Virus record (IMG/VR): IMGVR_UViG_3300031555_005516
Source of the DNA: a virus
Strand: one strand, 5' to 3'
DNA length: 64,000 bases
The first letter of the stretch is position 1. Every line of letters starts with the position of its first letter. Shown here one piece after another: positions 233 to 32,885 of this stretch. The notes under the pieces are model-generated. The model saw nothing but the letters and a program-made list of their open reading frames with translations. It made no database searches and was not told where the DNA came from. The position numbers and the translations under genes are program-made.

Positions 233-901
233 ATGGAAAATAAATATCAAGTAGTCGCGCTCATTGGAAAAGCGGGCGCAGGTAAAGATTCAATTCAAAA
301 GGCAACTTGCGAATTACACCCTCTCATGTTTCACCCTATTGTTAGCTGCACGACACGTCCAGCGCGAGAGGGGGAAGTAGAAGGAGTAGATTACCACTTT
401 ATTTCACTTAATGAGTTTACACGCAAGGTACTTAATGGAGATATGCTTGAAGCAACAGAGTTTAGAGATTGGTTTTATGGAACCACTCTTGATTCTCTTG
501 CAAAAGATAAAATCAATATTGGAGTATTTAATCCTGCAGGGGTTGAAGCTCTACTTGAAGATCCTCGCCTTAATGTTAAAGTATTTGAAATAGTGGCGCC
601 TGATAAGCAGCGATTAATGCGATATCTTAATAGAGAAGAATATCCCGATTGTGCAGAAATGTGCAGGCGCTACTTTACTGATGAAAAAGATTTTGCAGAC
701 CTTGATTTTGATAGATATAATATTGAAAATTATGATGGCACAAGTCTTGACCTTTTAGAAGACTGCAATAGTTGCATTGAAGAATTTGAAACAATGTGGC
801 AGACACTCGATGTAGATACTCAGTTCGAGACCATTAAGCGCTGGGAGAGCTCAATGTCGAAAAAAGCTGAATCAACTGATATTGAGGGCAGTGCTGAATA
901 A
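233..901 (+). CDS. P-loop nucleotide/nucleoside kinase-like protein (dNMP kinase-like)
   Basis: Intact 222-aa ORF with Walker A 'GKAGAGKDS' near the N-terminus. First gene of the nucleotide-metabolism module. TAA stop. Confidence 0.55.
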   Translation: MENKYQVVALIGKAGAGKDSIQKATCELHPLMFHPIVSCTTRPAREGEVEGVDYHFISLNEFTRKVLNGDMLEATEFRDWFYGTTLDSLAKDKINIGVFNPAGVEALLEDPRLNVKVFEIVAPDKQRLMRYLNREEYPDCAEMCRRYFTDEKDFADLDFDRYNIENYDGTSLDLLEDCNSCIEEFETMWQTLDVDTQFETIKRWESSMSKKAESTDIEGSAE

Positions 902-954: not shown

Positions 955-1188
955 ATGACAATGAAATTTACTTTCTACTCAAAGCCTGGGTGTCCTCAAT
1001 GCAAAGTTCTTAAAATGAAGATGGACGCAGCAGGAATTCAATATACTCATATTGAGGATATAGATGCTATTATAGCACTTGGATATCAAGGAGCTCCTGT
1101 TTTAGTTACAGAAGTTGGAGCCTTTGTTGGACCAAACGCTATTAAATGGATAAATAACTGGATAAAGGAGCACCCAAATGGACATTAA
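955..1188 (+). CDS. nrdH: NrdH/glutaredoxin-like redoxin
   Basis: 77-aa ORF with a CPQC redox motif in a thioredoxin-fold context ('FYSKPGCPQCKVLK'). RBS 'aaggagaaaATG'. Lies immediately upstream of nrdD. Confidence 0.7.
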   Translation: MTMKFTFYSKPGCPQCKVLKMKMDAAGIQYTHIEDIDAIIALGYQGAPVLVTEVGAFVGPNAIKWINNWIKEHPNGH

Positions 1189-1285
1189 TGTTAGACTAAA
1201 AAAGAATTTTACCACAGCCTATAATAAGCTTTAGGCTGAATATGGAACAGATATTGCTAGACTCAATGGCTTTGACGATAATCAA

Positions 1286-4252
1286 TTGAGCTATGTTGAT
1301 TTTATTGATAATTTTATTGATACCAAAGTAGTTGCGGATGCGAGTATTGATGGCAATAGTAACGTCAGTAAAAAAGATATAGTAACACTTCTTAATGAAA
1401 TGCCAAAACCACATAGAAAATTATTGGCATATAATAAAATTCATTATGAAATGCAAAAAGAGTTTGGATTTAAAACAGCCAATGAATGGTTAAAATCTGA
1501 ATGGGTAGGACAGCTTTACATGCATGATGCTGATACTAGCACTTTTAAACACTACTGTTATAAAGGTGAAGAGCTTGTAACAGTAAGAGATAGAATACAC
1601 CGTGAATATACTTTTGCTTTAAAAGAGTTATATGACAATATTCTTGCAATGGATACCGAAGCAGAAGAGCGTTATGATGTATCTATTGAGCAAAAAGCAT
1701 TATTTCCAAAAAATATTGAGGTACTTGATATTAATGAAGAAACTGGAGAAAAATGTTGGACTAAGGTTACTCGCGCAGTTAAACACACAAATAATAAGTC
1801 TATGCGTTTTATTAAGTTAGCAAATGGTTTATCGCAAATTGTAACTGAAGACCATCCTATTATTACAGATTGTGGCGACATTCCTGCAAAAGATGTAAAT
1901 GATGAATATCGTGTCTTTACCATTCAACCCTCTTGCTCATTCAATTGCGAATTGCCTTTTAAACAAAATCAATTAAAAGATTTAGGATGGGTCACTGGCA
2001 TGGCCTTATCTGAAGGCAATGTTATAAATAATAGACAATTTGTTATAGCACAAAAATTAAATTCTATTCAAGCAGAGAAAATGAGACAAATTTTAAATAC
2101 TCATGAAATTCCTTTTGCAGAAAGTGGAGATAGAAAATTTTATCTGCACAACAGTGAATTCCAAAAATGGTTAATTTCTTTATTCAATAAACAAACTTCT
2201 GTTAATAAATGTTTGCCTTCTTATTTTATGCAATTACCATCAGATTTTATGGATGGGGTTATTGCAGGAATGATTGATGGAGATGGTACTATTGATGGAT
2301 ATAAGAATAGACATTGTCATATCCGTATTGCTTCAGAAGTTCTTTGTCGCCAGTTAAGCATGTATTTGCACTCAAAAGGAATCTTTGTAGGAGATAGAAC
2401 ACCATTTAGATATAATAGAATTGGAAGCTTTGAACAAAAGCTACCAATGTTCGGTATCGGCTTTACTCTTACAAATGAGGAATATTTTTTAAACATTGGA
2501 AGCGTTAAAATTCAAGAAAAATATACGCCTTTAACTCGAAAAGGCAATTTTAAAAATAAACAATATGAATACAACTATGGATGGGTTTCAATTATTGATA
2601 ACTCAGAGTATATTGATGAATGCCCTGAGGTATATGACTTAACAACAGAAACAGGTCATTTTATTTGTAATAATATTCTATCTCATAACTGTTTTGCTTA
2701 TGATCTAAAAGATTTAGCCGAAAAAGGACTTTATTTTATAGGAGCTCCATTTAATCCCGAACCTGCAAAACATTTAACAACTTTTGTAGACTTCGTTAAA
2801 GAATATATTAGTTATGCATCTAATCGTTCATCAGGCGCCGTCGGTTTGCCTAACCTTATTCCTTATATGTGGTATTTTTGGCATAAAGACGTTGAGTCTG
2901 ATTACCTTGGCTTAGCTTCAAGTGGCAATGCTGAAAAATATGCGCGCCAGAACTTTCAGCGTTTTGTCTACGCCGTAAATCAGCCTTATGTTCGTGATGG
3001 TTCGCAAAGCGCTTTTACTAACACAAGTGTATTTGATCGCCCCTATTATGAAGCATTATTTGGCGGTAGCGAATTTCCCGATGGCAGCTTTATGATTGAC
3101 TATGAAGAGGATATTATTGAGTTTCAAAAATGGTACATGGAAGAAGTTGCAGAAATTAGATCTCATAATATGTTTACTTTCCCAGTGCTTTCAATCTCTT
3201 TGCTAAAACAAGATGGAGAGTTCCAAGATGAGGAATTTGCGCGCTGGGCCGTAAAGCATAACATGCGTTGGTCAGATAGTAACTTGTTTATTGATGACTC
3301 TGTGACTTCACTTTCCAACTGTTGCCGTTTAAAGAGCGATATTAAGGATCTGGGTTATTTTAATAGTATCGGAGGTACTGCGCTTAAAGTTGGTTCTGTA
3401 AAAGTATCTACTATTAATCTTGCGCGCCTGGCGCTTGATACGAATAGTGAATTTGAATATCTAATGGAATTAAGAAAGCGCACTTTACTTAATCTTCAGG
3501 CTCTTCATTGTGTTAGAAATATTATTCGTCGTAATGTTGAAAAAGGACTTCTCCCCAATTTCTCTATGGGGCTTGTAGATTTTGAACATCTCTATAACAC
3601 TATTGGCTTTATTGGCGTTTATGAAACAATGAAGCGCTTTGGCTATACTCGCACAGATGATTTTGGAAATGTATACTATACAGAAGAAGCGTCTTCGCTT
3701 GGTCAGAGAATTTTCCAAACGATGCGTGAGGTTGCTGATCAGTTTATTGAAGATATGAGTGCCGACTATCATATTAACACAGAGCAGATCCCTGGAGAGT
3801 CAGCCGCCGCCAAACTAATGCGTAAAGATAAATTCTTCTATCCAGATTCTGATATCTTTGATCTTCCTTTATATGGCAATCAATTTATTCCTCTTGGTAT
3901 TCAAACTACTCTTGCGGAACGTGTTAGAATTGCCGCGGAGTTTGATGGCTACTGCAATGGAGGTTCAATTCTTCACGCCAATATTGATGCTCCATTTGAC
4001 AATTTTGATAAAGCTTGGGAAATGGTTAACTATATTTCTGATGCTGGAGTAACATATTTTGCTTTTAATACTAAAATCCAAGCTTGCGATAATAATCATG
4101 CGTTTTATGGTCACGAATGCCCCGTTTGTGGTCGTCCAGTTGAAACCGAATATACAAGAATTGTAGGCTTTTATACACCGATTAAAACTTGGTCAAAAGA
4201 GCGCACAAATGAATATAAAATGAGAAAATGGGAGCCAGTAAATAAAAAATGA
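1286..4252 (+). CDS. nrdD: Anaerobic (class III) ribonucleoside-triphosphate reductase NrdD, interrupted by an intein
   Basis: 988-aa ORF. The N-terminal 'LYMHDADT' matches the T4/E. coli NrdD 'IHVHDIDY' region. The C-terminal 'CPVCGRPV...TRIVGFYTP' is the zinc-ribbon plus glycyl-radical motif. The two exteins total about 610 aa, normal NrdD length. The stop overlaps the nrdG start (ATGA). Confidence 0.85.
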   Translation: MSYVDFIDNFIDTKVVADASIDGNSNVSKKDIVTLLNEMPKPHRKLLAYNKIHYEMQKEFGFKTANEWLKSEWVGQLYMHDADTSTFKHYCYKGEELVTVRDRIHREYTFALKELYDNILAMDTEAEERYDVSIEQKALFPKNIEVLDINEETGEKCWTKVTRAVKHTNNKSMRFIKLANGLSQIVTEDHPIITDCGDIPAKDVNDEYRVFTIQPSCSFNCELPFKQNQLKDLGWVTGMALSEGNVINNRQFVIAQKLNSIQAEKMRQILNTHEIPFAESGDRKFYLHNSEFQKWLISLFNKQTSVNKCLPSYFMQLPSDFMDGVIAGMIDGDGTIDGYKNRHCHIRIASEVLCRQLSMYLHSKGIFVGDRTPFRYNRIGSFEQKLPMFGIGFTLTNEEYFLNIGSVKIQEKYTPLTRKGNFKNKQYEYNYGWVSIIDNSEYIDECPEVYDLTTETGHFICNNILSHNCFAYDLKDLAEKGLYFIGAPFNPEPAKHLTTFVDFVKEYISYASNRSSGAVGLPNLIPYMWYFWHKDVESDYLGLASSGNAEKYARQNFQRFVYAVNQPYVRDGSQSAFTNTSVFDRPYYEALFGGSEFPDGSFMIDYEEDIIEFQKWYMEEVAEIRSHNMFTFPVLSISLLKQDGEFQDEEFARWAVKHNMRWSDSNLFIDDSVTSLSNCCRLKSDIKDLGYFNSIGGTALKVGSVKVSTINLARLALDTNSEFEYLMELRKRTLLNLQALHCVRNIIRRNVEKGLLPNFSMGLVDFEHLYNTIGFIGVYETMKRFGYTRTDDFGNVYYTEEASSLGQRIFQTMREVADQFIEDMSADYHINTEQIPGESAAAKLMRKDKFFYPDSDIFDLPLYGNQFIPLGIQTTLAERVRIAAEFDGYCNGGSILHANIDAPFDNFDKAWEMVNYISDAGVTYFAFNTKIQACDNNHAFYGHECPVCGRPVETEYTRIVGFYTPIKTWSKERTNEYKMRKWEPVNKK
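1556..2689 (+). mobile_element. Intein (~378 aa) with a LAGLIDADG homing-endonuclease core, inserted in nrdD
   Basis: Begins with Cys ('HY|CYKGEELV') and ends 'ILSHN' followed by a +1 Cys ('CFAYDL'). Two LAGLIDADG-type blocks ('LGWVTGMALSEGNV', 'DGVIAGMIDGDGTIDG'). Inserted directly before the conserved active-site Cys of NrdD (T4 'NCCLVDLKG'). Confidence 0.75.
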
Positions 4253-4731
4253 AAGTCAAAGGAATTATAACAGAAGATTTCGTTAATTATAAAATTCCTT
4301 CTTTAACAATAGAAACTCCTTATTGCAAAGGTTTTAAATGTGATCGAGAATGCGGCATGCCAGTGTGTCAAAATAGTACATTGGCAAATATGCCAACTCT
4401 TGATTATTCAATAGACTCTATTATTGAGCTATATCAAAAGACTCCGTTTACACATGCAATAGTATTTCAAGGATTGGAGCCTTTTGATACCTTTGAAGAC
4501 TTATATGACTTTCTCTTTGTTTTTAGAGAATGTTATTTAATAGAAGATGATGTTGTTATTTACACAGGATATTATGATGATGAGATTGAAGATCAATTAA
4601 ATCAATTAAAACATTTTTCAAATATTATTGTAAAATTTGGACGCTATATTCCAGATATGGAATCTCACTTTGATGATATACTTGGAGTAAAACTTGCTAG
4701 TCCAAATCAATATGCAGAAAGGATTAGCTAA
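4249..4731 (+). CDS. nrdG: Anaerobic RNR activating enzyme NrdG-like (radical SAM)
   Basis: 160 aa, Cys cluster 'CKGFKCDRECGMPVC' near the N-terminus. 'AIVFQGLEPFD...VVIYTGYYDDEIEDQL' parallels E. coli NrdG 'ISLSGGDPL...IWVWTGYKLDEL'. Translationally coupled to nrdD. The Cys spacing is atypical (C-x4-C-x3-C). Confidence 0.6.
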   Translation: MKVKGIITEDFVNYKIPSLTIETPYCKGFKCDRECGMPVCQNSTLANMPTLDYSIDSIIELYQKTPFTHAIVFQGLEPFDTFEDLYDFLFVFRECYLIEDDVVIYTGYYDDEIEDQLNQLKHFSNIIVKFGRYIPDMESHFDDILGVKLASPNQYAERIS

Positions 4732-5697: not shown

Positions 5698-5949
5698 ATG
5701 GGAAAATATCTAATAAAAACAACAGAAGAACATCGTGCAGATACTGAGCATGAAGCGGCAGAGCTTATCAATGCAGCAAAAGCAGATGGACGCTATATTC
5801 TTGTAAAATATTCCTCTGTAAAAAAAGAAAGAAAGCAAAAAGGTGAAATAGTAGACGAATATTATATAGTCACCTTGGTGAAAGGATTTGATGATCCTAA
5901 GCAACCCTGTGGTGAAGCCTCAGTAGAATATAAGATAGGAGCGTTTTAA
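5698..5949 (+). CDS. Hypothetical protein
   Basis: 83-aa ORF, RBS 'aaggagaagg'. Charged, no motif recognised. Confidence 0.4.
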   Translation: MGKYLIKTTEEHRADTEHEAAELINAAKADGRYILVKYSSVKKERKQKGEIVDEYYIVTLVKGFDDPKQPCGEASVEYKIGAF

Positions 5950-5951
5950 TT

Positions 5952-6437
5952 ATGAATATAAAAAATGGATATATAGTTACTCCGAAGCCCGCTAATGAAA
6001 TCGATTTTGTAAAGCTTACATCTACTGCACAGGCGCCGGTGAGAGGAAGTGAACAGGCAGCTGGTTGGGATCTTCATGCTGACCTAGAAGGATTAGATAA
6101 GATTGTAATTCCACCTCACACCTATAAAAAAATTTCTACAGGCATTGCTATTGCGCTGCCTCGGGGCACCTTTGGCGCAATCTATCCACGAAGCGGAATG
6201 GCAACAAAAAGAGGTCTTGTATTAGCAAACACTGTTGGCATCATTGATGCAGACTATAGAGGCGCCGTCATAGTGGCTCTTAAAAATGATTCTGATGAAA
6301 TGCAAGTAATAGAACATGGTGAACGTATTGCGCAACTAATTGTTCAACCTTTCTTACGTGTTGAATTTAACGAAGTAAAATCAATTGGAACTACTGCTCG
6401 AGCAGATGGTGGCTTTGGGTCAAGTGGAAATAAATAA
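5952..6437 (+). CDS. dut: dUTP diphosphatase (dUTPase)
   Basis: All five dUTPase motifs are visible: 'AAGWDL', 'PRSGMA', 'GIIDADYRG', 'GERIAQL', 'RADGGFGSSG'. Confidence 0.9.
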   Translation: MNIKNGYIVTPKPANEIDFVKLTSTAQAPVRGSEQAAGWDLHADLEGLDKIVIPPHTYKKISTGIAIALPRGTFGAIYPRSGMATKRGLVLANTVGIIDADYRGAVIVALKNDSDEMQVIEHGERIAQLIVQPFLRVEFNEVKSIGTTARADGGFGSSGNK

Positions 6438-6442
6438 TTTAA

Positions 6443-6477
6443 AGAGCGAGATTAAATCTCGCTCTTTTTGATTTTTT
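6443..6477 (+). terminator. Rho-independent terminator after dut
   Basis: Hairpin 'agagcgagat-taa-atctcgctct' followed by a T-run. Confidence 0.6.
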
Positions 6478-6519
6478 AAAAAATTTAAAATATAATATAT
6501 CCAGAATGGAGGTGCATTT

Positions 6520-7029
6520 ATGTACTTATTGGCATTAGATGCTTCAACTAAAGCAACAGGAATTGCAATTTTTAAAGATAAAGAATTAATTGGATAGGCT
6601 TGTATTACCTCTTCATCTACAGATCTATATAAAAGAATACATAAAATGGTGGACAATATTCTAGCTGTCGTAGATTAGCTAGGAATTAATTAGATTGTAA
6701 TGGAAGAAGTTATTCCAGATCATAGTAAAAACACAAATACATTTCGTGCATTAATGTATTTATAGGCATTAATTCATATTGAAATGCACGATAAACATCC
6801 AGAGGTATAGATTGAAATGATTTATCCTAGCTCTTGGCGCTCAGTATGTGGCATAGAAGATGGACGCAGCTCTAAACGAGAATAGAAAAAGCAAAAAGAT
6901 ATTGATTTCGCAAATAAAACATATAATCTATCTTTAACCAATGATGATATAGCAGATGCCGTATGCATAGGCCATGCCTATCTTAATCCTAAAAAAGAAA
7001 AAGATTATACCGCAGCTTTGGAATGGTAA
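6520..7029 (+). CDS. RuvC-like Holliday-junction resolvase containing 5 in-frame TAG codons (recoded)
   Basis: RBS 'ggaggtg' then ATG. 'MYLLALDASTKATGIAIF' matches RuvC 'ILGIDPGSRVTGYGV', and the C-terminal 'DADAVCIGHAY' matches RuvC 'DAADALAIAI'. Five in-frame TAGs (first at 6595-6597) and no TAA/TGA until 7027-7029. One TAG aligns with Gln in the RuvC 'KLGQARG' block ('MYL*ALI'). Confidence 0.7.
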
Positions 7030-7047
7030 ACAAAAGAGGAAGATATA

Positions 7048-7371
7048 TTATCTATATCTTCCTCTTTTTATTCTTTCAAACATCATATCAGTAATGTCTA
7101 TAATCTCCTCTCCAAACACAGAAATAATTTCTGCAATTAACTCCTCTTCATCGTGCTCTAACAGGACATTATACGCAAACATTGAGGCATGTACTAATTC
7201 ATGACACAATACCTGCTCAAACATCTCACTATGAAGCGCATTACTGATATAGATAGTTTTAGTAGTATCATTACACGCTCCTAAAGCATATCTACCATTT
7301 GGCATTAAAAGTGCAACGTCGTATGGATAAACTAAAACTATCTACCAATATTCTCCATTAATAGTAAACAT
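7048..7371 (-). CDS. Small HExxH metallopeptidase-like protein (1 in-frame TAG)
   Basis: Track ORF 7048..7305 carries 'CHELVH'. It extends upstream through a TAG at 7342-7344 to an ATG at 7369-7371 ('MFTINGEYW*IVLVYPYDVALLMPNG...'). A TAA lies immediately upstream. Confidence 0.45.
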
Positions 7372-15007: not shown

Positions 15008-15322
15008 TTAGAAGAAAAATACTCCCGCTCGTATTAACATATAAAAATTATTTATAATAACTATAAGATACAATATTGTCACAAGCCAAGCCTCCCAAGA
15101 CAGCCTCTTATCAGCTTTAATAATAAGGCCAAGAGCTAACAATAAAATTGGCATAATAATTAATTTTAGCCATCCACAATCGGCTGCAAACATAAGGCGC
15201 CCTATTGGATTGAGCTCAACGCCAAGTCCAAAAAGTCCTATGGCGTATGCTGTTTGGCAATAATCAATTATGTTAAAAATGGACGTTATTATCAATAATA
15301 TAATAGTTGTAGTCATTATCAT
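15008..15322 (-). CDS. Small polytopic membrane protein (holin-like or GtrA/flippase-like)
   Basis: Intact 104-aa ORF with about three hydrophobic segments. Lies directly downstream of the GT2 gene. Confidence 0.45.
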   Translation of the reverse strand: MIMTTTIILLIITSIFNIIDYCQTAYAIGLFGLGVELNPIGRLMFAADCGWLKLIIMPILLLALGLIIKADKRLSWEAWLVTILYLIVIINNFYMLIRAGVFFF

Positions 15323-15363
15323 CCCTCCATTGTAAAAAATTGGGGTTCTGTTAAATCTTGTTT

Positions 15364-16344
15364 TTACACCATTGCTTCAACTTGCTTAATCCACTCGTTA
15401 AAAGTAAGCGTTTCAAGTACCATACCTTCAGCATACATCCGATTCTTAATTCCCATAATAATCTGAGCTTTTATATCTTGAGGAATTTCATCATGCAACT
15501 TTTTATACTTTAGCCAATACTCCTTAAAGCGTCTCTCCGTTGCATAACGATAATTTTTATTCTCTTGATTTAGCCACTCGTCTTTATTCATTGTGAAATA
15601 TGCATCATAAATCATGCCTACTACATAGAATTGAGCATCCTCTTTTCTCTTGCGATTTAAGAATTGAGTTACAAGAGCATCATTACTATCAAGCATATTG
15701 TTATAGGTTTTTAAAATATACTTTGGATCATGGCGGCAAACCGAAGCATCGCGCCAACGCCACAAATAGAATGAAGTCTGAGAATACTTCAACTCTTTTG
15801 CAAGTCTCTGACATAGACAATTAAAATAACTATCCTCGTGAATCGTCAACTTATCATTCCAACGAATATTATTATCAATAAGGTATTGTCTACGATGCAC
15901 TTTTCCATGCACAAAAGTAGAATCCATATCGTGATTGATATAAAGCGGTTCTTTAGTATCTGGAATATGAGACTCTTCAATGAATGCAGATACTAAACTA
16001 TCAAAGCCACCATTCTCTATTTCACGGAAGATGATGTATAAGCCGCAAGCATTGTAGAACATATCATCTGCATCACAGAACATTACATAATCTGCAGTTG
16101 CTTTATCAAGACAAGCATTACGAGTTGCAGAAACACCTTTATGTTCATTGAGATGATACTCAATTGGGAAAGAATATCTCTTAAAGAAGTCTTCTGATAG
16201 ATGGACATCAGTGCCATCATTTACTATAATGACACCAACATCTTCTTTTAGGTTTACATTTTGTTGAACCTCAATACTATCAAGTAATGGTTTAATAATA
16301 TCTTCCGTTTCTTTATACTGAGGTACTAAAATTTGTAATTTCAT
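15364..16344 (-). CDS. Family 2 glycosyltransferase
   Basis: Intact 326-aa ORF. 'ILVPQYKETEDI...VIIVNDGTD' plus the DxD-like 'MFCDADDMF' are typical of GT-A/GT2. Confidence 0.65.
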   Translation of the reverse strand: MKLQILVPQYKETEDIIKPLLDSIEVQQNVNLKEDVGVIIVNDGTDVHLSEDFFKRYSFPIEYHLNEHKGVSATRNACLDKATADYVMFCDADDMFYNACGLYIIFREIENGGFDSLVSAFIEESHIPDTKEPLYINHDMDSTFVHGKVHRRQYLIDNNIRWNDKLTIHEDSYFNCLCQRLAKELKYSQTSFYLWRWRDASVCRHDPKYILKTYNNMLDSNDALVTQFLNRKRKEDAQFYVVGMIYDAYFTMNKDEWLNQENKNYRYATERRFKEYWLKYKKLHDEIPQDIKAQIIMGIKNRMYAEGMVLETLTFNEWIKQVEAMV

Positions 16345-16376
16345 TTCCTTTTATCTCCTTTTATCTCTTTTAAATA

Positions 16377-17432
16377 TTATGTGAAGTTATATGAAAAAAT
16401 TCTATTTGAAAAGAAAACCCAGTTAGTTGCAGCTTTATAAGAAGCAAGTAAGGAGGCCGGAACGAAGATTGAGCCTTTGTTTGACCAGATACTAGTTTGT
16501 GAAAAAGCGTCTGAGCCTTCTAAAAAACATACTGTAGATGCAGCAAGATAAATAGAAGCAAGTTTTGAACAACGTAGGAATGCGTAAGAACTAATATTTG
16601 TAATTTTTGGAAAACTTACAGTCGTAAGGTTTGAACAGTTTTGGAATGCAGCGAGGTTAATAGCTGTAACTGCTGGAAAGCTCACTCCCGCAAGTTTTAA
16701 ACAACCTACAAAGGCAGAAGCACCAATAGTTGTAACCGCTGGAAAATTTACAGTTGTAAGGCTTGAGCAATATCGAAACGCATAGTCTCCAATAGTTGTA
16801 CATTGTGGAAAACTTACGCTTGTAAGGCTTGAGCAAGAATAAAACGCATAATTTCCAATAGTTGTTACTCTATCATTTGTATAAGTCGTCAAAGTTCTAG
16901 TTACTAGTCCATCTTCTGCACTTGTATCTCCGCCACTACTTCCACCTCCACTATTAGCAGTACCAACCACTCCAAAAATACTCTTGCCACTTACGATATT
17001 GCTCGCTACTAAATTAGCATCGCCTTTAATAGTTTGCACCCCAGTTAAATACTGTCCAGATGCAATTGTCTGATTAGTTGTACCAGGGATAATGGTTTGC
17101 GCAGCTTGAAATGCTAACTGTTTAGTTGCAGATTTAGTACCTGCCGCCACATAACCAGCAGTCTGAGTTGCAGTTGCAGTAATCAGTCCACTTGAATTAA
17201 CAGTAATACTCGGTGTTGCCTGTGTAGCCGTAGGCATTGCATTAACAGTTACCGTATCTAATCCATCATATCCGCTATCTGCAGTTACCGTTTGCTGACT
17301 CGTTGAAGGAGTTACTGTTTTATCTTGAAGAATAGGGTCGGTACCTCCCACATCGGGCAACTCATTAAGCTGTGTTATAATTTCCTCCAAAGAGGAATTG
17401 TTTGCTTGTAATTGCGTATTATAATTTGACAT
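16377..17432 (-). CDS. Tail fibre/receptor-binding protein with C-terminal BspA-type leucine-rich repeats
   Basis: Intact 351-aa ORF. The C-terminus has tandem ~22-aa repeats 'TTIGNYAFYSCSSLTSVSFPQC / TTIGDYAFRYCSSLTTVNFPAV / TTIGASAFVGCLKLAGVSFPAV'. The N-terminus 'MSNYNTQLQANNSSLEEIITQLNELPDVGG' is shared with the next two genes. Confidence 0.55.
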   Translation of the reverse strand: MSNYNTQLQANNSSLEEIITQLNELPDVGGTDPILQDKTVTPSTSQQTVTADSGYDGLDTVTVNAMPTATQATPSITVNSSGLITATATQTAGYVAAGTKSATKQLAFQAAQTIIPGTTNQTIASGQYLTGVQTIKGDANLVASNIVSGKSIFGVVGTANSGGGSSGGDTSAEDGLVTRTLTTYTNDRVTTIGNYAFYSCSSLTSVSFPQCTTIGDYAFRYCSSLTTVNFPAVTTIGASAFVGCLKLAGVSFPAVTAINLAAFQNCSNLTTVSFPKITNISSYAFLRCSKLASIYLAASTVCFLEGSDAFSQTSIWSNKGSIFVPASLLASYKAATNWVFFSNRIFSYNFT

Positions 17433-17451
17433 TTGTTAATCCCCCTTTACA

Positions 17452-17820
17452 TTATCCTTTCGATAAAGTTGCATCACCCGAAATAAAAAATCCTTGATGA
17501 CTTGTACCAGTACCAATTGAAGCGATGCTTCCAGAGATCTCAGACGCATATTCAACAAAAATTATACTATTTTTCATAACGATTACAGATTTACTCTGTC
17601 TAAAGGCGGGAAAACTAGATTGTTGAAGCGTTAAAGTGTCATCTATATAATAAACTATTTCGTCGCCCGTGGGTACGCCCATACTGGATAATGTAAGAGT
17701 ACAAGTTTCCAAGTCTCCTCCTCCGCCAGAACCTCCGCCAGCATCAGGAAGTGCGTTTGCCTTATCTATAAGTGCTTGGAGGTTGGTGTTATTTGTTTGT
17801 AATCTTGTTTTATTTGACAT
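17452..17820 (-). CDS. Short tail-fibre paralog (shared N-terminal module)
   Basis: Intact 122-aa ORF. 'MSNKTRLQTNNTNLQALIDKANALPDAGGGSGGGGD' parallels the N-termini of 16377..17432 and 17839..18945. Confidence 0.4.
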   Translation of the reverse strand: MSNKTRLQTNNTNLQALIDKANALPDAGGGSGGGGDLETCTLTLSSMGVPTGDEIVYYIDDTLTLQQSSFPAFRQSKSVIVMKNSIIFVEYASEISGSIASIGTGTSHQGFFISGDATLSKG

Positions 17821-17838
17821 TATTTATTTACCTCCTTA

Positions 17839-18945
17839 TTAACTACAGGTTATAGTACAATCGTTTTCATTTGGTAGTTGGATTACAAGACCGACATTTA
17901 CAATATTTACAGAATCTTGCATCACATGTAACAAATTGCCTCCATTGGAAACACTACAATTACTCATACCATAGTCGTTAAAAACCCCTATGTCGAAAGC
18001 AACTATGGTAATTACAGAGCCTTGTAGCGCATTAACAGTTATTGTAGATGTAGAATTAAGAAGGAAGTCACTTTTTTTTCCTATAATGGAATTATTTTCT
18101 AAAGAATTATAAAATATAATCCAAATACCATTAAATGATGAATTGCTGCTTATAGTTACAGTGCAAGTCTCTATGCTCCCTCCACCAGAGCCTCCGCTTG
18201 CTTTACTATCTAAGATAGTGCTTAACTCTGAAATTAAACTTTCTTGTTCAGTTAATTCAGTATCAAGATTTTCACTTCCGCTATGAGTTCCAGCTACTCC
18301 AAAAATGCTAACTCCAGAAGCAATATTTTCAGCTTTAAGATTTGCATCGCCTTTAATAGTCTGAGTGCCAGTTAAATAAATTCCACTTGATATTGTTTGA
18401 TTCGAAGTAGTAGGAGTATAAGTGGTCGCTGTTTTAGTGGTCAATTGTTTAGTTCCACTCTTAGTTCCTGAAGCTACATATCCCGCGCTCTGTGTGGCAC
18501 TTGCTGTAATTAAACCACTGGCGCTAACCGACACTGTAGGAGTTGCTTGAGTAACAGTAGCTACAGACTTACTTGCGTTACTTGCATAATATCCTGCGGG
18601 AACCGTAACCGTAGAACCGCTTGCAGTTAAATCACTTGATGTTTTAGTAGCAATTGAACCAGTAATCTTATTACCTTCACCATCAATAGCTTCTTTTCCA
18701 CTAAGAATGTCTGTAGCACTTGCAGGATTATCAAGAGTAGGAAGAACTGTTCCTCCTGAGCCGCCAGCCTTACCATCAAGCGCAGTCATAATCTGTTCAA
18801 TTAACTCGGTCTGCGCATCAACCTCACTATTAGCCGCAGTAGTATCAGATATTAAATCATCAAGACTCTTTTCCTCAGTAGCGCCACTTAGCGTTCTCAC
18901 TTCATCTGCTAATGTAGTCATTTTTTCATTAAATCCCATTACCAA
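17839..18945 (-). CDS. Tail-fibre paralog
   Basis: Intact 368-aa ORF. An internal ~95-aa block 'VTQATPTVSVSASGLITASATQSAGYVASGTKSGTKQL...LTGTQTIKGDANLKAENIASGVSIFGVAGT' is closely similar to 'ATQATPSITVNSSGLITATATQTAGYVAAGTKSATKQL...LTGVQTIKGDANLVASNIVSGKSIFGVVGT' in 16377..17432. Confidence 0.5.
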   Translation of the reverse strand: MVMGFNEKMTTLADEVRTLSGATEEKSLDDLISDTTAANSEVDAQTELIEQIMTALDGKAGGSGGTVLPTLDNPASATDILSGKEAIDGEGNKITGSIATKTSSDLTASGSTVTVPAGYYASNASKSVATVTQATPTVSVSASGLITASATQSAGYVASGTKSGTKQLTTKTATTYTPTTSNQTISSGIYLTGTQTIKGDANLKAENIASGVSIFGVAGTHSGSENLDTELTEQESLISELSTILDSKASGGSGGGSIETCTVTISSNSSFNGIWIIFYNSLENNSIIGKKSDFLLNSTSTITVNALQGSVITIVAFDIGVFNDYGMSNCSVSNGGNLLHVMQDSVNIVNVGLVIQLPNENDCTITCS

Positions 18946-19727
18946 GTCGCCTCCTCTGCTACTGTCGTGTCAAGATAGTTCTGCGCAATAGGTTCAACTA
19001 CTGCAGGATCACCGCTTGCTAAACCATCAATGTACGCAATTAATTGACTAAGTTTTGTTTCGGTAAGAACTGTATTACCTACCTTAATAGCTGGAACATC
19101 ATTTGATCCATCCCATGCTGTCGTAACACTAAATCTATCGGATGTTTCTCTTAGCGCCCTACCTGCGCCTACCGTTGTTAATTCTTCATCCATTAAAAAG
19201 GTAATTATACCATTAGAATCATTATTAATCGTCCAATTTCCTCTATTAAAAGTTATACTAACAGTATAAGTAGTCGTATCTTCCATTCCTCCAGAATAAT
19301 TACTAACGGTAAAGGTCTCTGAGTAAAAGGTTCCTTCCATAGTGTATGCGGGTACTTCTAAAGTTCTATCAAAATACTGGTAATAAGGAAGATTTCCAGT
19401 ACCGCTATAATTAATAGTATTGTTTTTAACCCTAATTTTTAATGGAACAATACAAGCTTGGTCATAAGTTTGCTCATCTAAAAGAGGAAGATTTGGAGCG
19501 TCTCCATATATTTCTGTAGTTTCACTAGAACCATTATTAGCAAAAGGCAATGCATTTACATTACTAGTGCCATCACCTATTTTAAAACGCTCATAATTGT
19601 AATTCGCGTCAATATCATAAATAATTATTTCTCCCTGCTTAGGGATAAAGTTTGTGGCTTTAAGCCAATTCTCTTCGGTATCGTGCTTATGCACAATACG
19701 AAATTTTAATGCTTCAGTTGTAGCCAT
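18939..19727 (-). CDS. Tail-fibre protein with HylP-like N-terminal domain
   Basis: Intact 262-aa ORF. The N-terminus 'LKFRIVHKHDTEENW...PKQGEIIIYDIDANYNYERFKIGDGTSNVNALPF' matches the conserved N-terminal module of Gram-positive phage fibres/HylP ('R..DT..NW....L..GE.G.E.DTG..KIGDG....L.Y'). Confidence 0.5.
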   Translation of the reverse strand: MATTEALKFRIVHKHDTEENWLKATNFIPKQGEIIIYDIDANYNYERFKIGDGTSNVNALPFANNGSSETTEIYGDAPNLPLLDEQTYDQACIVPLKIRVKNNTINYSGTGNLPYYQYFDRTLEVPAYTMEGTFYSETFTVSNYSGGMEDTTTYTVSITFNRGNWTINNDSNGIITFLMDEELTTVGAGRALRETSDRFSVTTAWDGSNDVPAIKVGNTVLTETKLSQLIAYIDGLASGDPAVVEPIAQNYLDTTVAEEATW

Positions 19728-19834
19728 AATATACTATCTCCTTTTCAAGTATTAAATTCTTGAGTTATCACTTTCAAACTCAAGTGGCTTTTAAAAGAGG
19801 GTGGGTAGAATTACCCACCCTTATGTGTATTTAA

Positions 19835-21733
19835 TTATATAACCTCTGTAGAAGAACCACAGTTAATTGTTGTAATTGCGCCAAGTGCTGCCTCGATAAG
19901 AGCATTAACCTGAGCCTCTGTCTGACGAGCAGTAATTGCCGCATTAAGAGTTGTTGTATCTGTTCCAGACATCTTAAGAGTTTCACCATTAAGAACAAAC
20001 TGTCTAGATGTAGCATAATCACCAGCACTAAAGTTTTCAAGAATTGTTTCACCATTAATCGTTGTTTTAGCAATTGCCTCAAGAGAGTCATAAACTGTAA
20101 CGCCTCTATCCATAACTGAATCAGACTCAACATGAATATTTTCTGCATAAATATTTATGCTCTCAGAAAGTGCCTTACCGTTTACAGTAGTTGTCTTATC
20201 AACCTTGTTGCTTTCAAGAGTAGTAACTCTGTCAAGAGCATTGTTAAGGCCGCTAGCAACAGTTACACCCTCATTAGTTCCGCCTATGTTAGTGTTGTTG
20301 ACGGCATTTTCAAAATCAGTTACTTTTTCAGAAGTAATTGTATCAAGAGTTGCAAGATCACCAAGATCAGCAGTCTTAGCATAACCTGCATTGGCATGGT
20401 TACCCCAGCCATGAGCAGTTACACCTTTGGCGATATCTGTATTAATAGCATCGGCGAGTTTATCAGCGGTTACTGCATCATTTGCAATCTTAACAGTAGT
20501 TACACCGCTATCCGCAATTTTTAAAGTTCTATTTTCAGTAAGATTACCTCCGCCTTCAAGACCATCTGTTCCAGTGATAGTGATGGTATTCAAAGCATGA
20601 CTACTTTCATCTCCAAGTTCAATCCACTTAGAGCCATCATAAACATATTCCTTATTACCATCAAGAACTACATCACCTGCGACAGGGTTTGAAGGATAAG
20701 ATGTGCCAACAAAGTGAAGAGCATTGGATAAGCCAAGGTCTGCTGCAGTAATTGAAATTGCTTCAGAACCATTATAAGTTTTACTACCTACAGTTAAAGA
20801 GTTGGCAACTTTATCTGCCGTTTCTGCAACTTTAGCTTTAACTGTTCCATTTTCAACACCAGTTTGAACTGCCGCTGCTGCACCGTATGCATCAAACTTA
20901 TTCGCTGTTACCACAATAGTGGGATTAGCAGCTGTACCACCAATAGTGATTGTATCATTACCTTCAGCAACAGACATAACGCCAAGTTCGGTAGGAATCT
21001 TAGCTTCAACTGCATCAGCATATCCCTTAGCTGTTGCATTAAGCGCAGATACTGTGGTATAAGCAGCGTCCTGGAGACCCTTAACTGCAACATCAGCACC
21101 TTCAACAGCGATTGTACCATTAGCACTACCGGTTGTAATATCTGCTTTTACAAGATAATTAAGAGCTTCAATTTCTGCTTGCGTTAAGAAAGCAAAAGAA
21201 ATTGTAGAACCATTACCTTCAGAAGGAGTAATTGTAATTCCCTTGCCATCTGCAGATTTAGCAAAAGTATAAGTTGTATTATCATCCTTTGCCCAAGCTG
21301 CGCGATTATCAGAAATATCTTTTTCAATTGCAGCGATATCATTTTGAACTTCTTCTAATCCTTCAGAGGTTGCAACAGAAGCAGTCGTAAATTTAATACC
21401 ACCCTTGTTTCCATTAAGAGTAGCGTCCCATTCGATGCCAGAAACAACATTACCTGTGCCTGCTTTAGAGAACTTAAGTTCGTTCTCCTTAGCCCATCCA
21501 TAAACATCAGCTGCAAGAGCGCTTGTGAAAGGAAGACTGTTAAAGTTACCAGGACCAACCTTCATTAATACTGCTTCAGAAGTAGCAGCAGGAGCTTCTC
21601 CATTGCCCTTAGGAGGAAGATATGCAATCGCAACCTCACCGGCTTTAAGAAGGGGATTTTCTCTTGCCCAATTTTCAAGAGAGTCATACTTAAGTTGAAG
21701 TCTTACATTAAGAATATTATCAGCAAATGCCAT
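19835..21733 (-). CDS. Large tail-fibre/structural protein (632 aa), HylP-like N-terminus
   Basis: Intact ORF. 'NVRLQLKYDSLENWARENPLLKAGEVAIAYL...MKVGPGNFNSLPF'. Ala/Thr/Gly-rich beta-repeat body. No in-frame TAG. Confidence 0.55.
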   Translation of the reverse strand: MAFADNILNVRLQLKYDSLENWARENPLLKAGEVAIAYLPPKGNGEAPAATSEAVLMKVGPGNFNSLPFTSALAADVYGWAKENELKFSKAGTGNVVSGIEWDATLNGNKGGIKFTTASVATSEGLEEVQNDIAAIEKDISDNRAAWAKDDNTTYTFAKSADGKGITITPSEGNGSTISFAFLTQAEIEALNYLVKADITTGSANGTIAVEGADVAVKGLQDAAYTTVSALNATAKGYADAVEAKIPTELGVMSVAEGNDTITIGGTAANPTIVVTANKFDAYGAAAAVQTGVENGTVKAKVAETADKVANSLTVGSKTYNGSEAISITAADLGLSNALHFVGTSYPSNPVAGDVVLDGNKEYVYDGSKWIELGDESSHALNTITITGTDGLEGGGNLTENRTLKIADSGVTTVKIANDAVTADKLADAINTDIAKGVTAHGWGNHANAGYAKTADLGDLATLDTITSEKVTDFENAVNNTNIGGTNEGVTVASGLNNALDRVTTLESNKVDKTTTVNGKALSESINIYAENIHVESDSVMDRGVTVYDSLEAIAKTTINGETILENFSAGDYATSRQFVLNGETLKMSGTDTTTLNAAITARQTEAQVNALIEAALGAITTINCGSSTEVI

Positions 21734-27935: not shown

Positions 27936-30900
27936 TTAATTAGAATTGATAATAATTTTTTCAAGTGCAGCAATACGTTCTTCCAATTTGCTGTTTTGAG
28001 TTTCTAATTCAGAAACCTATTTCTTAAGTTTCTAAATTTCATAGGTATTAAGTGCAATGAATTCAGTATACACTAAACCATTTATATCGTTTGAACATTG
28101 CACAATAGCAAAGTCCTATGAATTTAAGTTAGCTTTTGAGAAAGCCTATTGTGTTTTCTATACTGTAAAACCAAAATGAGTCTACTATGATTCATCTTTA
28201 TTATATTTATAACTAACTGGCTGTAGCTAATCAAATAAAATAGAATATTTTTCTAAATTAGCAGAAATAGAATTTTTATATTTTTCATCAGAACTTGTTA
28301 CAGCATATTCTTCTAATAATAGATATTTTAAAAATGCAGTTCCGTCGTTTAAAATATAATATCCTTTTGATTGATCGCTTGGCGCCGGTCCAAGCCCAAA
28401 TGCATCAATAGAGCTAGACTAATTTGCATAAGTTTGATTATATACATCTTTAGTCTAAAAACCCTATCCAGTAAAATACCATCCTCCAACAATGCCTTTA
28501 TCTGTTGTGTCAACTGCAAAAGAGGCAGTCATACCAGAGGATCCACTTCCAACTGAAATTCCGTTAGTTCCAAAATATGCGCCCTCTGCTTGAGTATCCC
28601 ATACACTGGTGCGTTCTCCTGAATATAAATAGGTCTCTGCAACTTTAAAACCACCTATTTTTACTTCTGGATCAATCGCTGTTTTATCTGCATTAGCATA
28701 GAATTTATCTCCAATCTTTATTGCTCCTGCACTAATCAGGTCTGCATTAAGAATTCCAGTTTTAATCATACTTGCATTAATAAAAAGCTCAACAGAATCT
28801 GCATTATAAAGAATACCTATTCCTCCAATATCATTTGGAATGGTAGAGAATTTATTAGACCCGTCAAAATCTTCAAAAATAGGACGAGGGTATACTTGAA
28901 CATATCGATACTTTGATCCATTCATATCTTCAATATCATAATCTCCCCCATCTGTTACAAGATTTTTAGCTAAATAAATGATACCAGTATTTTCTCCATT
29001 ATTGGTCAAAGTATTAAAAGCCTTATAAGTAGTTAGTTCTGATCCATTAAAAATACTTCTTAATGTTTTTGATAAAATTATTAAATTTCCATAAGAAGTA
29101 TCTAATTTTTTAAAATTAAATATTACTGTATCTGTTAATCCTAGTTCTACAGAAAATTCTTCATTTCCTGTAAAAATAACTTCTTCTTCATTATTTTTTA
29201 GGTAAGATAACTAATACCCACTTGGTAATGAATCGGGAGTAGTGTAAACCTGCTATATGTTTTCATCATCTTTAAAACTTATAGATATGGTTTCTAAAAA
29301 GATATCAGTTGCTTTTGAATTTGTTGTATCAATAATACCATTAGGGTGTTCATTAAAAAGTATCTAATACTAAAAATCTTTCTACGCTACTCTTAAAGTA
29401 AACATTCCTCTTACTGGATTTCCAGTTTCAGGGGTATATATTATATTAAACAACTATTCCGCACCGTTATATTTTGGAAAATCTAACAATGTGAAAATTA
29501 CTTGATCATTGCCCAGCTTTTTATATTCATAAGCCCAGGTATCATTAGATTTGGGAGAAATTGACAACCTTTCAATATCTATTATTTGCTTTTCTTCATT
29601 GATATAATAATTAAAATAATTAACAAAACTATTAATAGGATTAAAGCTTTCATCAATCATTATTGTTTCATTAGAAGAGCTTAGTTCTAAATAAGGAATA
29701 GAATTTTCCCCTTTTGTATTATAATAGATATAAATCCACTAAATATTCTCTCCAATTTGTTTTCCATCAAGATAAATCATAAAATTTAATTTAATCTTAT
29801 AAATGGTATATTCTAACTCTAGCCCTAATCCCCAAGGATTCTCTATTTGATAATAGGCTCCTTCTTGCTTTGTTAGGATATTCTAAATAAAGGTCTCATC
29901 CTTTACTTCCTCTCCATCTTTTGTAATATAACCTTCTTGAAAAAACTAAAATTCATAGCCAACATTTGTTAAAATTGTGCCTGTCCTATCTACTACTGTT
30001 GCAAGACCTTGCTAAACAGCAATCTCTAAAGGAACTGATTTTTTTTCTGCATTCTAAAAAGAGTAGTTTTCACTATAAATATTAATTCGAAGACCATTAT
30101 CGATAACCAAACAATTAATACTAGAGTCCAAGATTATTTCTGGGACAGATCCTTCGTTTGCTACAATTGTGTTATCATATATCTCAATTTGCAAATAATA
30201 TTTACCTGACTCGCCTGGGTTAGAAATCATTGCTGTCAACTTTTCTTCTTCTGGCGCTGATTTCTAAAATACTAAATTCTAAATTAAAGCATTGTCAGGT
30301 TTATTTAAACTTTCTTTTTGATATTTGTTTGATACTACTGCGACATAGCGCTTAGAAGAATCGTTTGTTATAGGCTTAGTGTCATAGCATTCAATTTTTT
30401 CTTTCCCTTGGTATACTTCAATATCTGCAACTTCTATTGCAGTATTATTAATTTTATCAAAAATAATATTCGGATTAGAAATAATAACATTAAAACCAGC
30501 TTCTCCATCTTCAATTCGAGTAAGTGTAACAACATCAACCGCTTCTTTGGAGGTTAATTCTGCAGTGCAGCGAATTTCAGAATATAATGATGAAATATGC
30601 TCTAATGTTAAAATTTTAGAATCTGGATTTAAAACTATTCCAAAACCCAAATCATTTACAGATGTCCAAATGCTATCCTTAAGAACTTCCGCTTTAATTT
30701 CCCATTCAGAAGTTTCATATCCGCTTATTTCTATTGAAAAAGCAATATATTCTGGAGAAGATTTTTTATAAATTAAAGCATCCGTTTTTAATCGAAAGCT
30801 TTTAGCGGCTTTACCGGGCTCTCCTGGCGCGCCGGGCGCTCCTGGAAGACCATCTACTGAATAGTTACCATCTAAAACGAAATTACTCCAATCTTTAGTA

Positions 30901-32885
30901 TTTTCGTTATAGTGTAGCTTACCAAGCTAGTTATAAGGACATTCAGTTCTATATCTATTTTTATATTCATTATCAATTTCTAAAGCCTCTGTCGTCCATA
31001 CGTCATATTCTTTATCAGGCTTCCCAAAATAAACCTTGCTATTTTCAACTCCTACATAAGGATAATTATTACCAATCCAATAGAAGGTTAATGAAGGAAT
31101 TCCAGTATAGTCAGCGGTTCCTAGTTTTGCTAATACCATCCTTGTTTCAGTATTTGTTTTTTCATAACAGAGATATGGATAATCAGTATTTATATCCGAT
31201 TCTAAAGTTGCTTCTTTTTTCTTATCAATATCAATCAACCCATCTTTCTCTCCATAGAGAATATACTAGTATCCATCATCCTATTCTGAAATTAACATAT
31301 CATTATATTCAATAAAACCATTAGTATAATATACTCTCCAAATACGATAAAGATCTTGTTGTTTAGTCTCTATATAAGCAATATTTCTTTCTTTACACGA
31401 ACTTATTACTATTGTATTTTTACCTTCTTCTATATTTTTAGTAACTCGCTTCCAAAGTATTGGTTTATCAATATTACTTATTTCTCCTATACGAGGTGCC
31501 CAAGGTCCATCAAAAGGTGCATGATCTTCATTATCGCTAAAAGCGAATTCCACAGTCTATTCAGGCAAGTATAATAAATCATCATTATTAATAACTATAG
31601 AAGCATATCCAATATACTTGTCACCATCTCTGTAATGGCATTTCCAAAGATTATAATTACTATCTAAGAACACTGATATCTATTGTTCAGTAGAATAGGA
31701 TGTGTCTTTTTGACCATAAACATCTATGTGTTCCCATTTATATTGACACTCTTTTTCATTTTCATTCATTGCAATAAGAACTTTTTCATAAGAGTCTACT
31801 GTTTGCTATGAGATATATAAACCAGAATAAGAAGGGGTTAAATTCTTTAAAATAGTATTAGCTTCAAAAATCATTTCTCCATAAGTAATTTCTACCTTAT
31901 ATTTCATTGGAGAATAATATATATCTTCTGAAGTAAGCTATACAATAGGTCTCTACCAGCGCGCCGTTTCCAATTTTTTCCAGCCGCTCTCTTCCCAAGG
32001 ATCCTCAATATACCACTAAAAACCACATAAATCAGGATCTATAAAAGTGGCGCCCTACATCATTCTTGCCTCAATCGTAATCTGCTCTACTTTATCGTGA
32101 AGAGTATCTCCTTCATATCCATGGATAACCGCCTACATACGATTGGCACTTTCGTTTTCTTTTATAATATTAAAGGTTATATTTTTAATTTTTAATACTT
32201 CTGAATTAGATAATTCATTTATTTTTTCCAAATAAATAGATTCAATAGTATCAAATTCATAATCTTTAAAATAACTTTGATAAGATTTAAAATCAAAGCT
32301 ATTTTGAGTAATTTCTATTTTTACAGCAGATTTAACAAGCTATCCTTTGTAACTTAATTCAAAAACTAAATCTATACTTCCAGAACTTAGTTCAGCTAAA
32401 ACTTCTGCGCCAATAGAAAACATCATAGACTCTTTAAGATGCTTTTCTAATAAAGTCTCATTCACTTTCAAAAGGTTATTAGACTCGCCTTTTTCATAAA
32501 GTATTGTTTTAGAATCAGAAAGAGTATATTCAACAATATCATCCTCTTCATTATCCTCTACAATAGAAGAGCCTAAAGAGGTATATAAAGAGCTCTCTTT
32601 TAAAGTGGTTAAATCACTAACTGAGGTGCGCCCAACAATCACTTTAAGTGACTCATCTTCAACATTGGTGGTAAGTATCTTAACTTTCTCATCTTTACCA
32701 TATTCTCCAGTCGGCGCCTAAGCTTCAAATATAGTATCTTGATAGTTTATCTTATAAATACGCTATTCTGGGTCAATGCATCCAATGACAGTTCCTATTA
32801 TGGTGCGCGTATAGTCCGTTTGGCGCAATTTACTATCAATTTGAATATCAACCGCTGAAAATAAATTTTCAACTATATTACTCAT
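27936..32885 (-). CDS. Giant tail/host-interaction protein (~1649 aa), heavily TAG-recoded
   Basis: ATG at 32883-32885 with RBS 'aaaaggagagataatATG'. Eight track fragments (32340..32642 down to 28464..29009) all lie in one frame. I translated 32643-32885 and 27936-28464 and found only TAG interruptions. Contains a collagen-like 'DGLPGAPGAPGEPGKA' and ends in a coiled coil '...KQVSELETQNSKLEERIAALEKIIINSN', then TAA near 27936. Confidence 0.5.

Follow-up and report, generated by a model that had tools for sequence, protein, structure and literature searches.

Among the described systems nearest to the locus treated here are gut phages of genetic code 15, in which the amber triplet TAG is read as glutamine (Gln); this decoding was inferred for Phass-1 (PMC10607447) and was shown by metaproteomics for crAss-like phages (PMC9523058). 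Phass-1, the crAss-like phages and the clades of Borges et al. (10.1101/2021.08.26.457843) have in-frame TAG in terminase, portal, tail and other genes, a replication block free of TAG and a low GC (guanine plus cytosine) content. The same features are found in a stretch of 64,000 nucleotides (nt) from the IMG/VR virus record IMGVR_UViG_3300031555_005516, called the window below. An open reading frame (ORF) at positions 6520-7029 of its + strand carries six in-frame TAGs and is predicted, by profile matches and a structural model, to encode a RuvC-fold Holliday junction resolvase.

A monophyletic group of Phass-1 relatives with probable Clostridia hosts was described by Babkin et al. (PMC10607447), and the proposed genus Phassvirus consists of Phass-1, BK046881 and BK025033. 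Phass-1 has a genome of 135,976 bp and is placed in the 'Caudoviricetes code 15 clade'; its group also contains the standard-code Enterococcus phage EF1 and Enterocloster phages, and in this it resembles the set of relatives found here. The capsid protein of the window shared 44.7% identity with its Phass-1 counterpart and 37% with the capsid proteins of the Enterococcus phages EF1, H1 and VRE9. Homologues of the resolvase at 23-30% identity were found in Phass-1 (22.8%), Enterococcus phages and Enterocloster phages. No nucleotide match was obtained when positions 5900-7100 were compared by blastn (word 11) with 50,697 phage records. By these comparisons the phage is distantly related to Phass-1, EF1 and the Enterocloster phages and belongs to the wider group, not to the genus Phassvirus.

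Synthesis of T4 endonuclease VII, the product of gene 49, is held back post-transcriptionally on the early transcript. This enzyme is, like the predicted product of the window gene, a phage junction-resolving nuclease; it differs in its unrelated, non-RuvC fold and in being controlled by mRNA structure and not by codon reassignment. It clears branches from DNA that is to be packaged and is associated with the portal (PMC3485210). This debranching role in packaging is one of phage junction resolvases, whose genes can be toxic in the host cell, as in the case of SPP1 G44P (PMC3485210). A second comparison is offered by the heavily recoded homing endonuclease of Agate phages, also a nuclease gene of the early/replication region that is preferentially recoded, and set there inside an early gene, for which the authors proposed that production of the nuclease is blocked until late (Borges et al., 10.1101/2021.08.26.457843). 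The Agate gene encodes a selfish intron endonuclease recoded from TGA to Trp, whereas TAG would be read as Gln here, in a core enzyme with its own predicted promoter and terminators. The recoding logic was proposed there for late and lysis genes, and resolvases were not mentioned.

Identity of the resolvase gene

The coordinates and strand given for the gene in a first-pass annotation, made from the sequence alone, were correct (Table 1), and six in-frame TAGs were counted where five had been stated. No in-frame TAA or TGA was present, and none of 20,000 mononucleotide shuffles was equally free of both, so the frame is open in a code with TAG as a sense codon and not by chance. A standard code would end the product at residue 25, and no enzyme would result. 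The codons of the catalytic residues D143 and D146 both lie 3' of the last TAG, and a functional resolvase would therefore need read-through of all six. With TAG counted as Gln, six of the seven Gln codons are TAG and one is CAA, the highest TAG share of any gene in the window.

The protein was searched with TAG written as X. Its full length was matched by PHROG profiles 159, 827 and 1770 (E=3.5e-18, 4e-16 and 2e-10), which represent the families 'RuvC-like Holliday junction resolvase' and 'Holliday junction resolvase'. The Pfam cut-offs were not reached, with 16.7 bits against 22.2 for PF02075 (RuvC) and 20.1 against 22.1 for the phage family PF07066 (DUF3882); several close homologues, among the 328 found in databases, carry precomputed matches to PF02075 or PF07066. 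An AlphaFold (AF2) model built on 33 homologues reached a predicted local distance difference test (pLDDT) score of 90.3, with strands at residues 2-7, 12-19, 22-30, 58-62 and 97-101 and helices at 36-54 and 72-92. The order of elements (beta1-2-3, alpha1, beta4, alpha2, beta5 and C-terminal helices) is that of an RNase H-like alpha/beta fold. When the model was compared with the Protein Data Bank (PDB) by using Foldseek, the best 14 matches were all RuvC proteins with template modelling (TM) scores of 0.6-0.8 and E values down to 8e-10; the top ones, from D. radiodurans, P. aeruginosa, T. thermophilus, Lactococcus phage bIL67 and E. coli, had TM scores of 0.7-0.8.

The acidic residues D7, E62/E63, D143 and D146 were invariant across the 33 homologues. 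D7 and E62 were aligned with catalytic residues of E. coli RuvC by hhalign, and D143 and D146 with its 'DAADA' segment by MAFFT; the catalytic acids of the E. coli enzyme are D7, E66, D138 and D141. RuvC-type resolvases are characterised by dimeric, Mg2+-dependent and symmetric cutting of four-way junctions. With the RuvC family (E. coli 1HJR, phage bIL67 4KTW, PHROG 159/827) the predicted protein thus shares the RNase H-like fold at TM 0.7-0.8, the size (about 160-170 residues), the acidic tetrad D7/E62/D143/D146 and the Gln of the 'LGQARG' helix, with 22-23% identity to 4KTW. It differs from the family in scoring below the gathering thresholds of Pfam RuvC and DUF3882 and in the amber form of six of its seven Gln codons. 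The similarity to RuvC that had been called clear in the first-pass annotation holds for the PHROG profiles and the predicted fold, and is too strongly worded for the Pfam matches. Taken together, the profile and model evidence identifies 6520-7029 as a gene for a predicted RuvC-fold Holliday junction resolvase.

A decayed pseudogene in a standard-code genome was considered as another source of such a frame, and was refuted. Six stops are indeed present under translation table 11, and the code-11 gene calls of the Joint Genome Institute (JGI) fragment the region (contig L018). The frame is, however, interrupted by TAG alone and is free of TAA and TGA to a degree that no shuffle reached; homology and the confidently predicted fold continue through all six TAGs, the catalytic residues are invariant, and terminase, portal and 29 further ORFs of the window are interrupted by TAG in the same way. 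The probability left to a pseudogene is negligible.

Reading of TAG as glutamine

The TAG in 'RALMYL*ALIHIEM' (asterisk, TAG) had been aligned in the first-pass annotation with the Gln of the E. coli RuvC string ALKLGQARGVAIVA and presented as a direct anchor, within the window, for the decoding of TAG as Gln. The peptide is present and its TAG is codon 82; the E. coli sequence was confirmed, and the string verified, by translating ruvC of NC_000913. When the family profile was aligned with E. coli RuvC by using hhalign (86% probability), X82 stood opposite the Q of 'ALKLGQARG'. Codon 53 was likewise opposite a Q in this alignment (Table 1), codons 26 and 58 were opposite S and Y, respectively, and codons 97 and 122 lay outside the aligned part. 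MAFFT shifted the 'LGQARG' segment and set X82 opposite an R of E. coli RuvC; this was taken for an artefact of the alignment, as the distance from 'AL' and the 'LQG' motif of the phage proteins both agree with the hhalign placement. The search of PDB sequences by phmmer and with the profile was of no use for this codon, since the alignment to 1HJR ended at residue 72.

Stronger evidence for the anchor than the alignment with E. coli comes from phage homologues. Column 82 is Q in the standard-code homologues of VRE9_3 (Enterococcus) and PMBT24 (Enterocloster), that is, in every standard-code phage homologue checked. It is Q also in relative L006, in MT838220, whose coding status is not established, and in the code-15 homologue of Phass-1, where it is written with a sense codon. 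At the DNA level within the clade, nine of 11 distinct sequences have TAG in this column and two have CAA. Homologues taken from databases were rejected as independent evidence because their Q is the code-15 translation of TAG; for every one whose DNA was fetched, table 11 gave no translation corresponding to the query.

The other five TAGs behave differently. Their columns vary among the homologues (Table 1), and the outgroups from annotated phages have Y/W/S, K/E/Y, K/L/M, E/K/D/H and E/S/M there. BLOSUM62 sums over all six columns were 44 for E, 37 for Q and 31 for K. By alignment, codon 82 is thus a good Gln anchor, and this part of the earlier claim stood; as direct proof of TAG as Gln it went too far, because the remaining five TAGs stand in variable columns and the six aligned columns alone do not separate Gln from Glu or Lys.

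Window-wide, Gln (genetic code 15) fits the comparisons far better than any other reading of TAG. Long ORFs summed to 80 kb when TAG was taken as sense, against 49 kb otherwise, and a continuous gene array was restored on the - strand from 7048 to 58956. When 19 genes were aligned with their counterparts in related contigs, the sense codons that most often faced TAG were CAA (46) and CAG (20); the residues were 66 Q, 39 K, 33 T and 30 E, and the BLOSUM sums 274 for Q and 137 for E. Opposite the window TAGs in standard-code EF1 and part of PMBT24, Q was commonest (21 of 112), with a BLOSUM sum of +59 against -5 for the runner-up E. Conservation of Q in these phages was 19% at TAGs and 20% at the CAA/CAG codons of the window itself. 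The share of CAG among codons was 0.36% in TAG-rich and 1.02% in TAG-free genes, and that of Gln plus TAG 4.6% in the former against 3.0% Gln in the latter; TAG was therefore gained at variable K/E/T/S sites too and did not just replace CAG.

A reading of TAG as some other residue (Glu, Lys or Tyr), or an ambiguous one, is highly improbable. Such decoding would agree with the lead of Glu over the six resolvase columns, with Tyr/Trp opposite codon 26 in distant homologues and with W/Y/F opposite a TAG of the ORF at 7048-7371. It disagrees with the invariant Gln column at codon 82, where TAG interchanges with CAA only, with the window-wide lead of Gln in related and in standard-code phages, and with the tRNA(CUA) genes of the related Phass-1, which were judged to be of the Gln type (PMC10607447). 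The ORF at 7048-7371 (- strand) is metalloprotease-like, and its single TAG, at codon 10, aligns with W/Y/F/M and not with Gln in relatives; a local misalignment, a start codon 3' of the TAG or an atypical site are possible explanations.

The decoder would presumably be a phage tRNA-Gln(CUA); suppressor tRNAs with this anticodon are common in code-15 phages, though not universal. No tRNA(CUA) gene was detected by ARAGORN and a scan for CUA loops in the window, nor in the 7.4 kb 5' and 10 kb 3' of it (contigs L018 and L022 of the same phage), nor in the close relative IMGVR_UViG_3300029305_004519, of which the whole array of 24 tRNAs and about 68 kb were covered. The ARAGORN runs took in 40 loci besides the window and the flanks and were repeated at lower thresholds and in intron mode; the program recovered all three Phass-1 suppressors as a positive control, and the search covered all but about 55 kb of the probable 136-kb genome of the phage. 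A pattern derived from the Phass-1 suppressors gave 97 matches in IMG/VR, with none in contigs of the clade except that of the distant relative L069, which has one tRNA(CUA). A metagenome scan with the end of L022 gave no match. Phass-1 differs in having three tRNA(CUA) genes, two of them just 5' of nrdD, a place where none was found here.

An unusual 70-nt tRNA-Thr(AGU) lies about 7.4 kb past the end of the window (L022, 10992-11061). It was rejected as the decoder, as its loop offers no CUA anticodon in any sensible register. The array of the close relative (L042, 5622-16865) has 24 tRNAs without a CUA anticodon, among them a tRNA-Lys(UUU) of 87 nt and a tRNA-Thr(UGU) of 86 nt with long variable arms.

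TAG load of the resolvase gene and its possible role

The resolvase gene stands apart from its neighbours on the same strand. Its ratio of TAG to CAA/CAG was 6:1, against 1:56 in the rest of the + block (Fisher p=6e-7), which contains gmk, nrdD, nrdG, two small ORFs and dut; no TAG was found in these genes apart from one in nrdD. The preceding dut gene, 82 nt away, is TAG-free as had been stated in the first-pass annotation, with no in-frame TAG against five CAA/CAG; yet six TAGs occur in its +1 frame. Several virion genes on the - strand are also TAG-free, and recoding was thus shown to be independent of strand, as had been claimed.

The bias recurs in relatives. In eight of them, down to 41% identity, the resolvase gene had 2-5 TAGs against 0-2 CAA/CAG (31:8 when pooled), and gmk, nrdD, nrdG and dut of the same eight were essentially TAG-free. 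Across 11 sequences TAG occupied 15 different columns of the resolvase alignment, so the TAG load is kept while its positions turn over.

The gene is, from its predicted signals, a separate unit of terminator, promoter, Shine-Dalgarno sequence, ORF and terminator, set between the nucleotide-metabolism/replication block and the convergent virion module (Table 1). The hairpin that separates it from dut folded at -16.3 kcal/mol (z=-4.6; none of 200 shuffles was as stable) and has equivalents in the relatives L001, L003, L005, L015 and L006. At the place of the promoter the relatives have TTGACT-17-TATAAT, and the Shine-Dalgarno stretch AGAATGGAGGTGCAT is kept. The hairpin behind the gene folded at -19.9 kcal/mol (z=-7.3), and an equivalent AGAGGAAGAT...ATCTTCCTCT hairpin was present 3' of the resolvase gene in all relatives inspected. 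The cassette as a whole is conserved in relatives. The order pol-gmk-dut-resolvase facing the late module was found also in the standard-code phages VRE9_3 and EF1; the RuvC gene of the Enterocloster phage PMBT24 lies inside the tail module, beside the tape measure gene.

It is proposed that the amber codons act as a translational gate on the resolvase. No enzyme would appear until the infected cell suppresses UAG; it would then be produced at the same time as the packaging machinery and, in the manner of T4 endonuclease VII, would remove branches from replication and recombination intermediates (branched concatemers) ahead of packaging. Early replication would proceed without this nuclease activity. 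The whole account, a code-15 resolvase gene with an amber translational gate, is given a probability of about 0.65. The identity of the gene, the sense decoding of TAG, best as Gln, the separate unit and the conserved TAG bias may be accepted with high confidence. The gate taken by itself is tentative, with chances a little below even.

Several observations weigh against the proposal. Within the window, the TAG share of 6/7 exceeded that of the other TAG-rich genes (0.43) only marginally (p=0.03). The resolvase homologue of Phass-1 is without TAG, so the TAG-rich resolvase gene is a trait of the clade of the window itself. On the late strand the capsid, scaffold-like and phrog_2729 virion genes contain no TAG. 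No tRNA(CUA) gene was found in the sampled sequence of the clade, and to this is added the limited power of the six resolvase columns given above. The timing of the resolvase was inferred from gene position and a model in the literature, and the promoter was rejected as a guide to early or late expression: the host-type consensus precedes TAG-free and TAG-bearing genes alike and therefore assigns no expression class. Near-perfect TTGACA-17-TATAAT sites at 58999/59019 (a divergent pair), 54285, 43150, 62954 and 63658 were recorded in the window, and sites of this type precede TAG-free small ORFs of the + strand (59-64 kb) as well as TAG-bearing late genes such as portal.

The first-pass annotation had further stated that recoding follows the expression class of a gene. 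As an inference this was partly right; it is too simple, because late genes for capsid, scaffold-like and virion proteins are TAG-free, and the homologue of Phass-1 contrasts with it as well. The dUTPase of Phass-1 was reported with one TAG (PMC10607447).

TAG-free late genes can be accommodated if the TAGs limit dose and do not set timing. Incomplete suppression at six serial TAGs would keep the yield of a potentially toxic nuclease very low throughout infection, and TAG density would reflect the small amount of a protein required and not the time at which it is required. The capsid, scaffold-like and phrog_2729 virion proteins (Table 1), as the most abundant ones, are TAG-free; the low-copy terminase, portal and giant ORFs and the resolvase are TAG-rich, with the highest share in the resolvase; and SPP1 G44P is a documented case of a toxic phage resolvase gene (PMC3485210). 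The late proteins that are probably most abundant avoid the recoded codon, and the low-copy ones are rich in it. A presumably functional Gln82 is nevertheless written as TAG in nine of 11 sequences, which is more easily tolerated with efficient decoding, and the giant ORFs, with 38 and 69 TAGs, would hardly be completed if each TAG were leaky. A dose limiter is held to be unlikely.

Somewhat more credible, though still doubtful, is that the TAGs have no regulatory meaning. TAG would then be one more Gln codon that drifts into whichever genes are translated after the switch, through C-to-T changes at CAG and substitutions at permissive sites, and the share in the resolvase would be the sampling noise of seven codons. 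The marginal excess over other TAG-rich genes fits this, as do the depletion of CAG where TAG is common (0.36% against 1.02%), the variable columns of five of the six TAGs and the TAG-free homologue of Phass-1. Drift does not readily explain why the bias recurs in all eight relatives while gmk, nrdDG and dut stay almost TAG-free, nor why the load is maintained although positions turn over; Gln plus TAG at 4.6% against 3.0% shows TAG added and not merely swapped for CAG.

A stronger form of the amber gate combines two claims: that the host-type promoter transcribes the cassette from the start of infection, with the six ambers as the sole delay or limit, and that UAG is decoded in the clade although no canonical tRNA(CUA) gene exists there. 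The combination is improbable, more so than a dose limiter. If the second claim were true, the decoder would have to be an unrecognised one, or the mechanism one derived from the host.

Neighbouring features and implications

Table 1. Coordinates of the resolvase gene, its in-frame TAGs, the flanking signals and other genes of the window.
Feature	Position	Strand	Evidence or remark
Resolvase ORF (predicted)	6520..7029	+	ATG 6520, TAA 7027-7029; 169 codons
In-frame TAG, codon 26	6595..6597	+	variable column: S/C/Y/W/H/Q across homologues
In-frame TAG, codon 53	6676..6678	+	opposite Q of E. coli RuvC 'EIITQFQ'; homologues E/K/N/Q
In-frame TAG, codon 58	6691..6693	+	variable column: K/V/E/T
In-frame TAG, codon 82	6763..6765	+	invariant Gln column, 'LQA/LQG' motif; diagnostic anchor
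In-frame TAG, codon 97	6808..6810	+	variable column: E/K/T/D/H
In-frame TAG, codon 122	6883..6885	+	variable column: E/T/A/S
Example peptides spanning TAG sites			ELIGQACITSSSTDLYK, ALMYLQALIHIEMHDK
gmk, guanylate kinase	233-901	+	PHROG match
nrdD, intein-containing	1178-4252	+	PHROG match
nrdG	4249-4731	+	PHROG match
dut, dUTPase	5952..6437	+	PF00692 E=1.4e-29; last gene of nucleotide-metabolism block
Intrinsic-terminator-like hairpin with T-rich tail	6441..6477 (12-bp stem 6441-6467)	+	consensus scan; separates dut from resolvase
Sigma-70/sigma-A-type promoter-like site, TTGATT-17 nt-TATAAT	6468..6496	+	10/12 consensus match only
Shine-Dalgarno GGAGGTG	6508..6514	+	5 nt 5' of ATG
16-bp hairpin between A-run and T-run	7032..7068		bidirectional-terminator-like, between resolvase (+) and virion module (-)
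Giant ORF	27936-32885	-	1,649 codons, 38 TAGs
Giant ORF	32940-42443	-	3,167 codons, 69 TAGs
Virion protein, TAG-free	44893-45795	-	phrog_2729
Virion-module gene, TAG-free	48930-49505	-	
HK97-fold capsid protein (predicted), TAG-free	49589-50641	-	Pfam YonB; AF2 pLDDT 69; Foldseek encapsulins and phage capsids about 1e-5
Scaffold-like protein, TAG-free	51214-52620	-	YonD_N, acidic/coiled-coil
Portal	52637-54229	-	7 TAGs
Terminase	54713-56458	-	7 TAGs

The - strand module holds the virion and packaging genes, that is, terminase, portal, and tail and virion proteins. A helicase gene and a split gene for the alpha subunit of Pol III were found 5' of the window (L018), the latter being split by a GIY-YIG endonuclease just before the window begins. 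NrdD contains a LAGLIDADG-type intein, with 1,024 residues against about 645 in relatives; its only TAG (codon 19) stands opposite Gln/Lys in these, and the code-11 start called by JGI lies 3' of this TAG. A gene for an HNH homing endonuclease at 54282-54647 (- strand; PHROG 559, E=1e-25), with one TAG, is inserted between terminase and portal.

The cluster at 15008-21733 (- strand) is TAG-free or nearly so inside the TAG-rich module. It has a higher GC of 37-40% and encodes glycosyltransferase-like, leucine-rich-repeat and fibre-like proteins, and it may be a recently acquired host-recognition cassette. The EF1 homologue of the larger giant ORF is misannotated as a cobalt-zinc-cadmium resistance protein. 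A Pfam scan of eight unannotated proteins of the virion module gave no usable match.

For annotation, the resolvase gene provides an anchor, within the window, for translating the contig with table 15; table 11 shatters the resolvase, terminase, portal and most tail genes. The gene is a clear but ordinary example of the known TAG-to-Gln code of some gut phages. Knowledge of code 15 itself is unchanged, and the regulatory reading is plausible, unproven and anticipated in the literature. The TAG-free capsid, scaffold-like and virion genes beside TAG-rich low-copy enzymes refine the rule that late genes are recoded. With the resolvase, a core DNA-processing nuclease joins the short list of non-structural genes preferentially written in a reassigned codon, and it is a case on which the idea that recoding times or limits the production of dangerous proteins can be put to experimental test.

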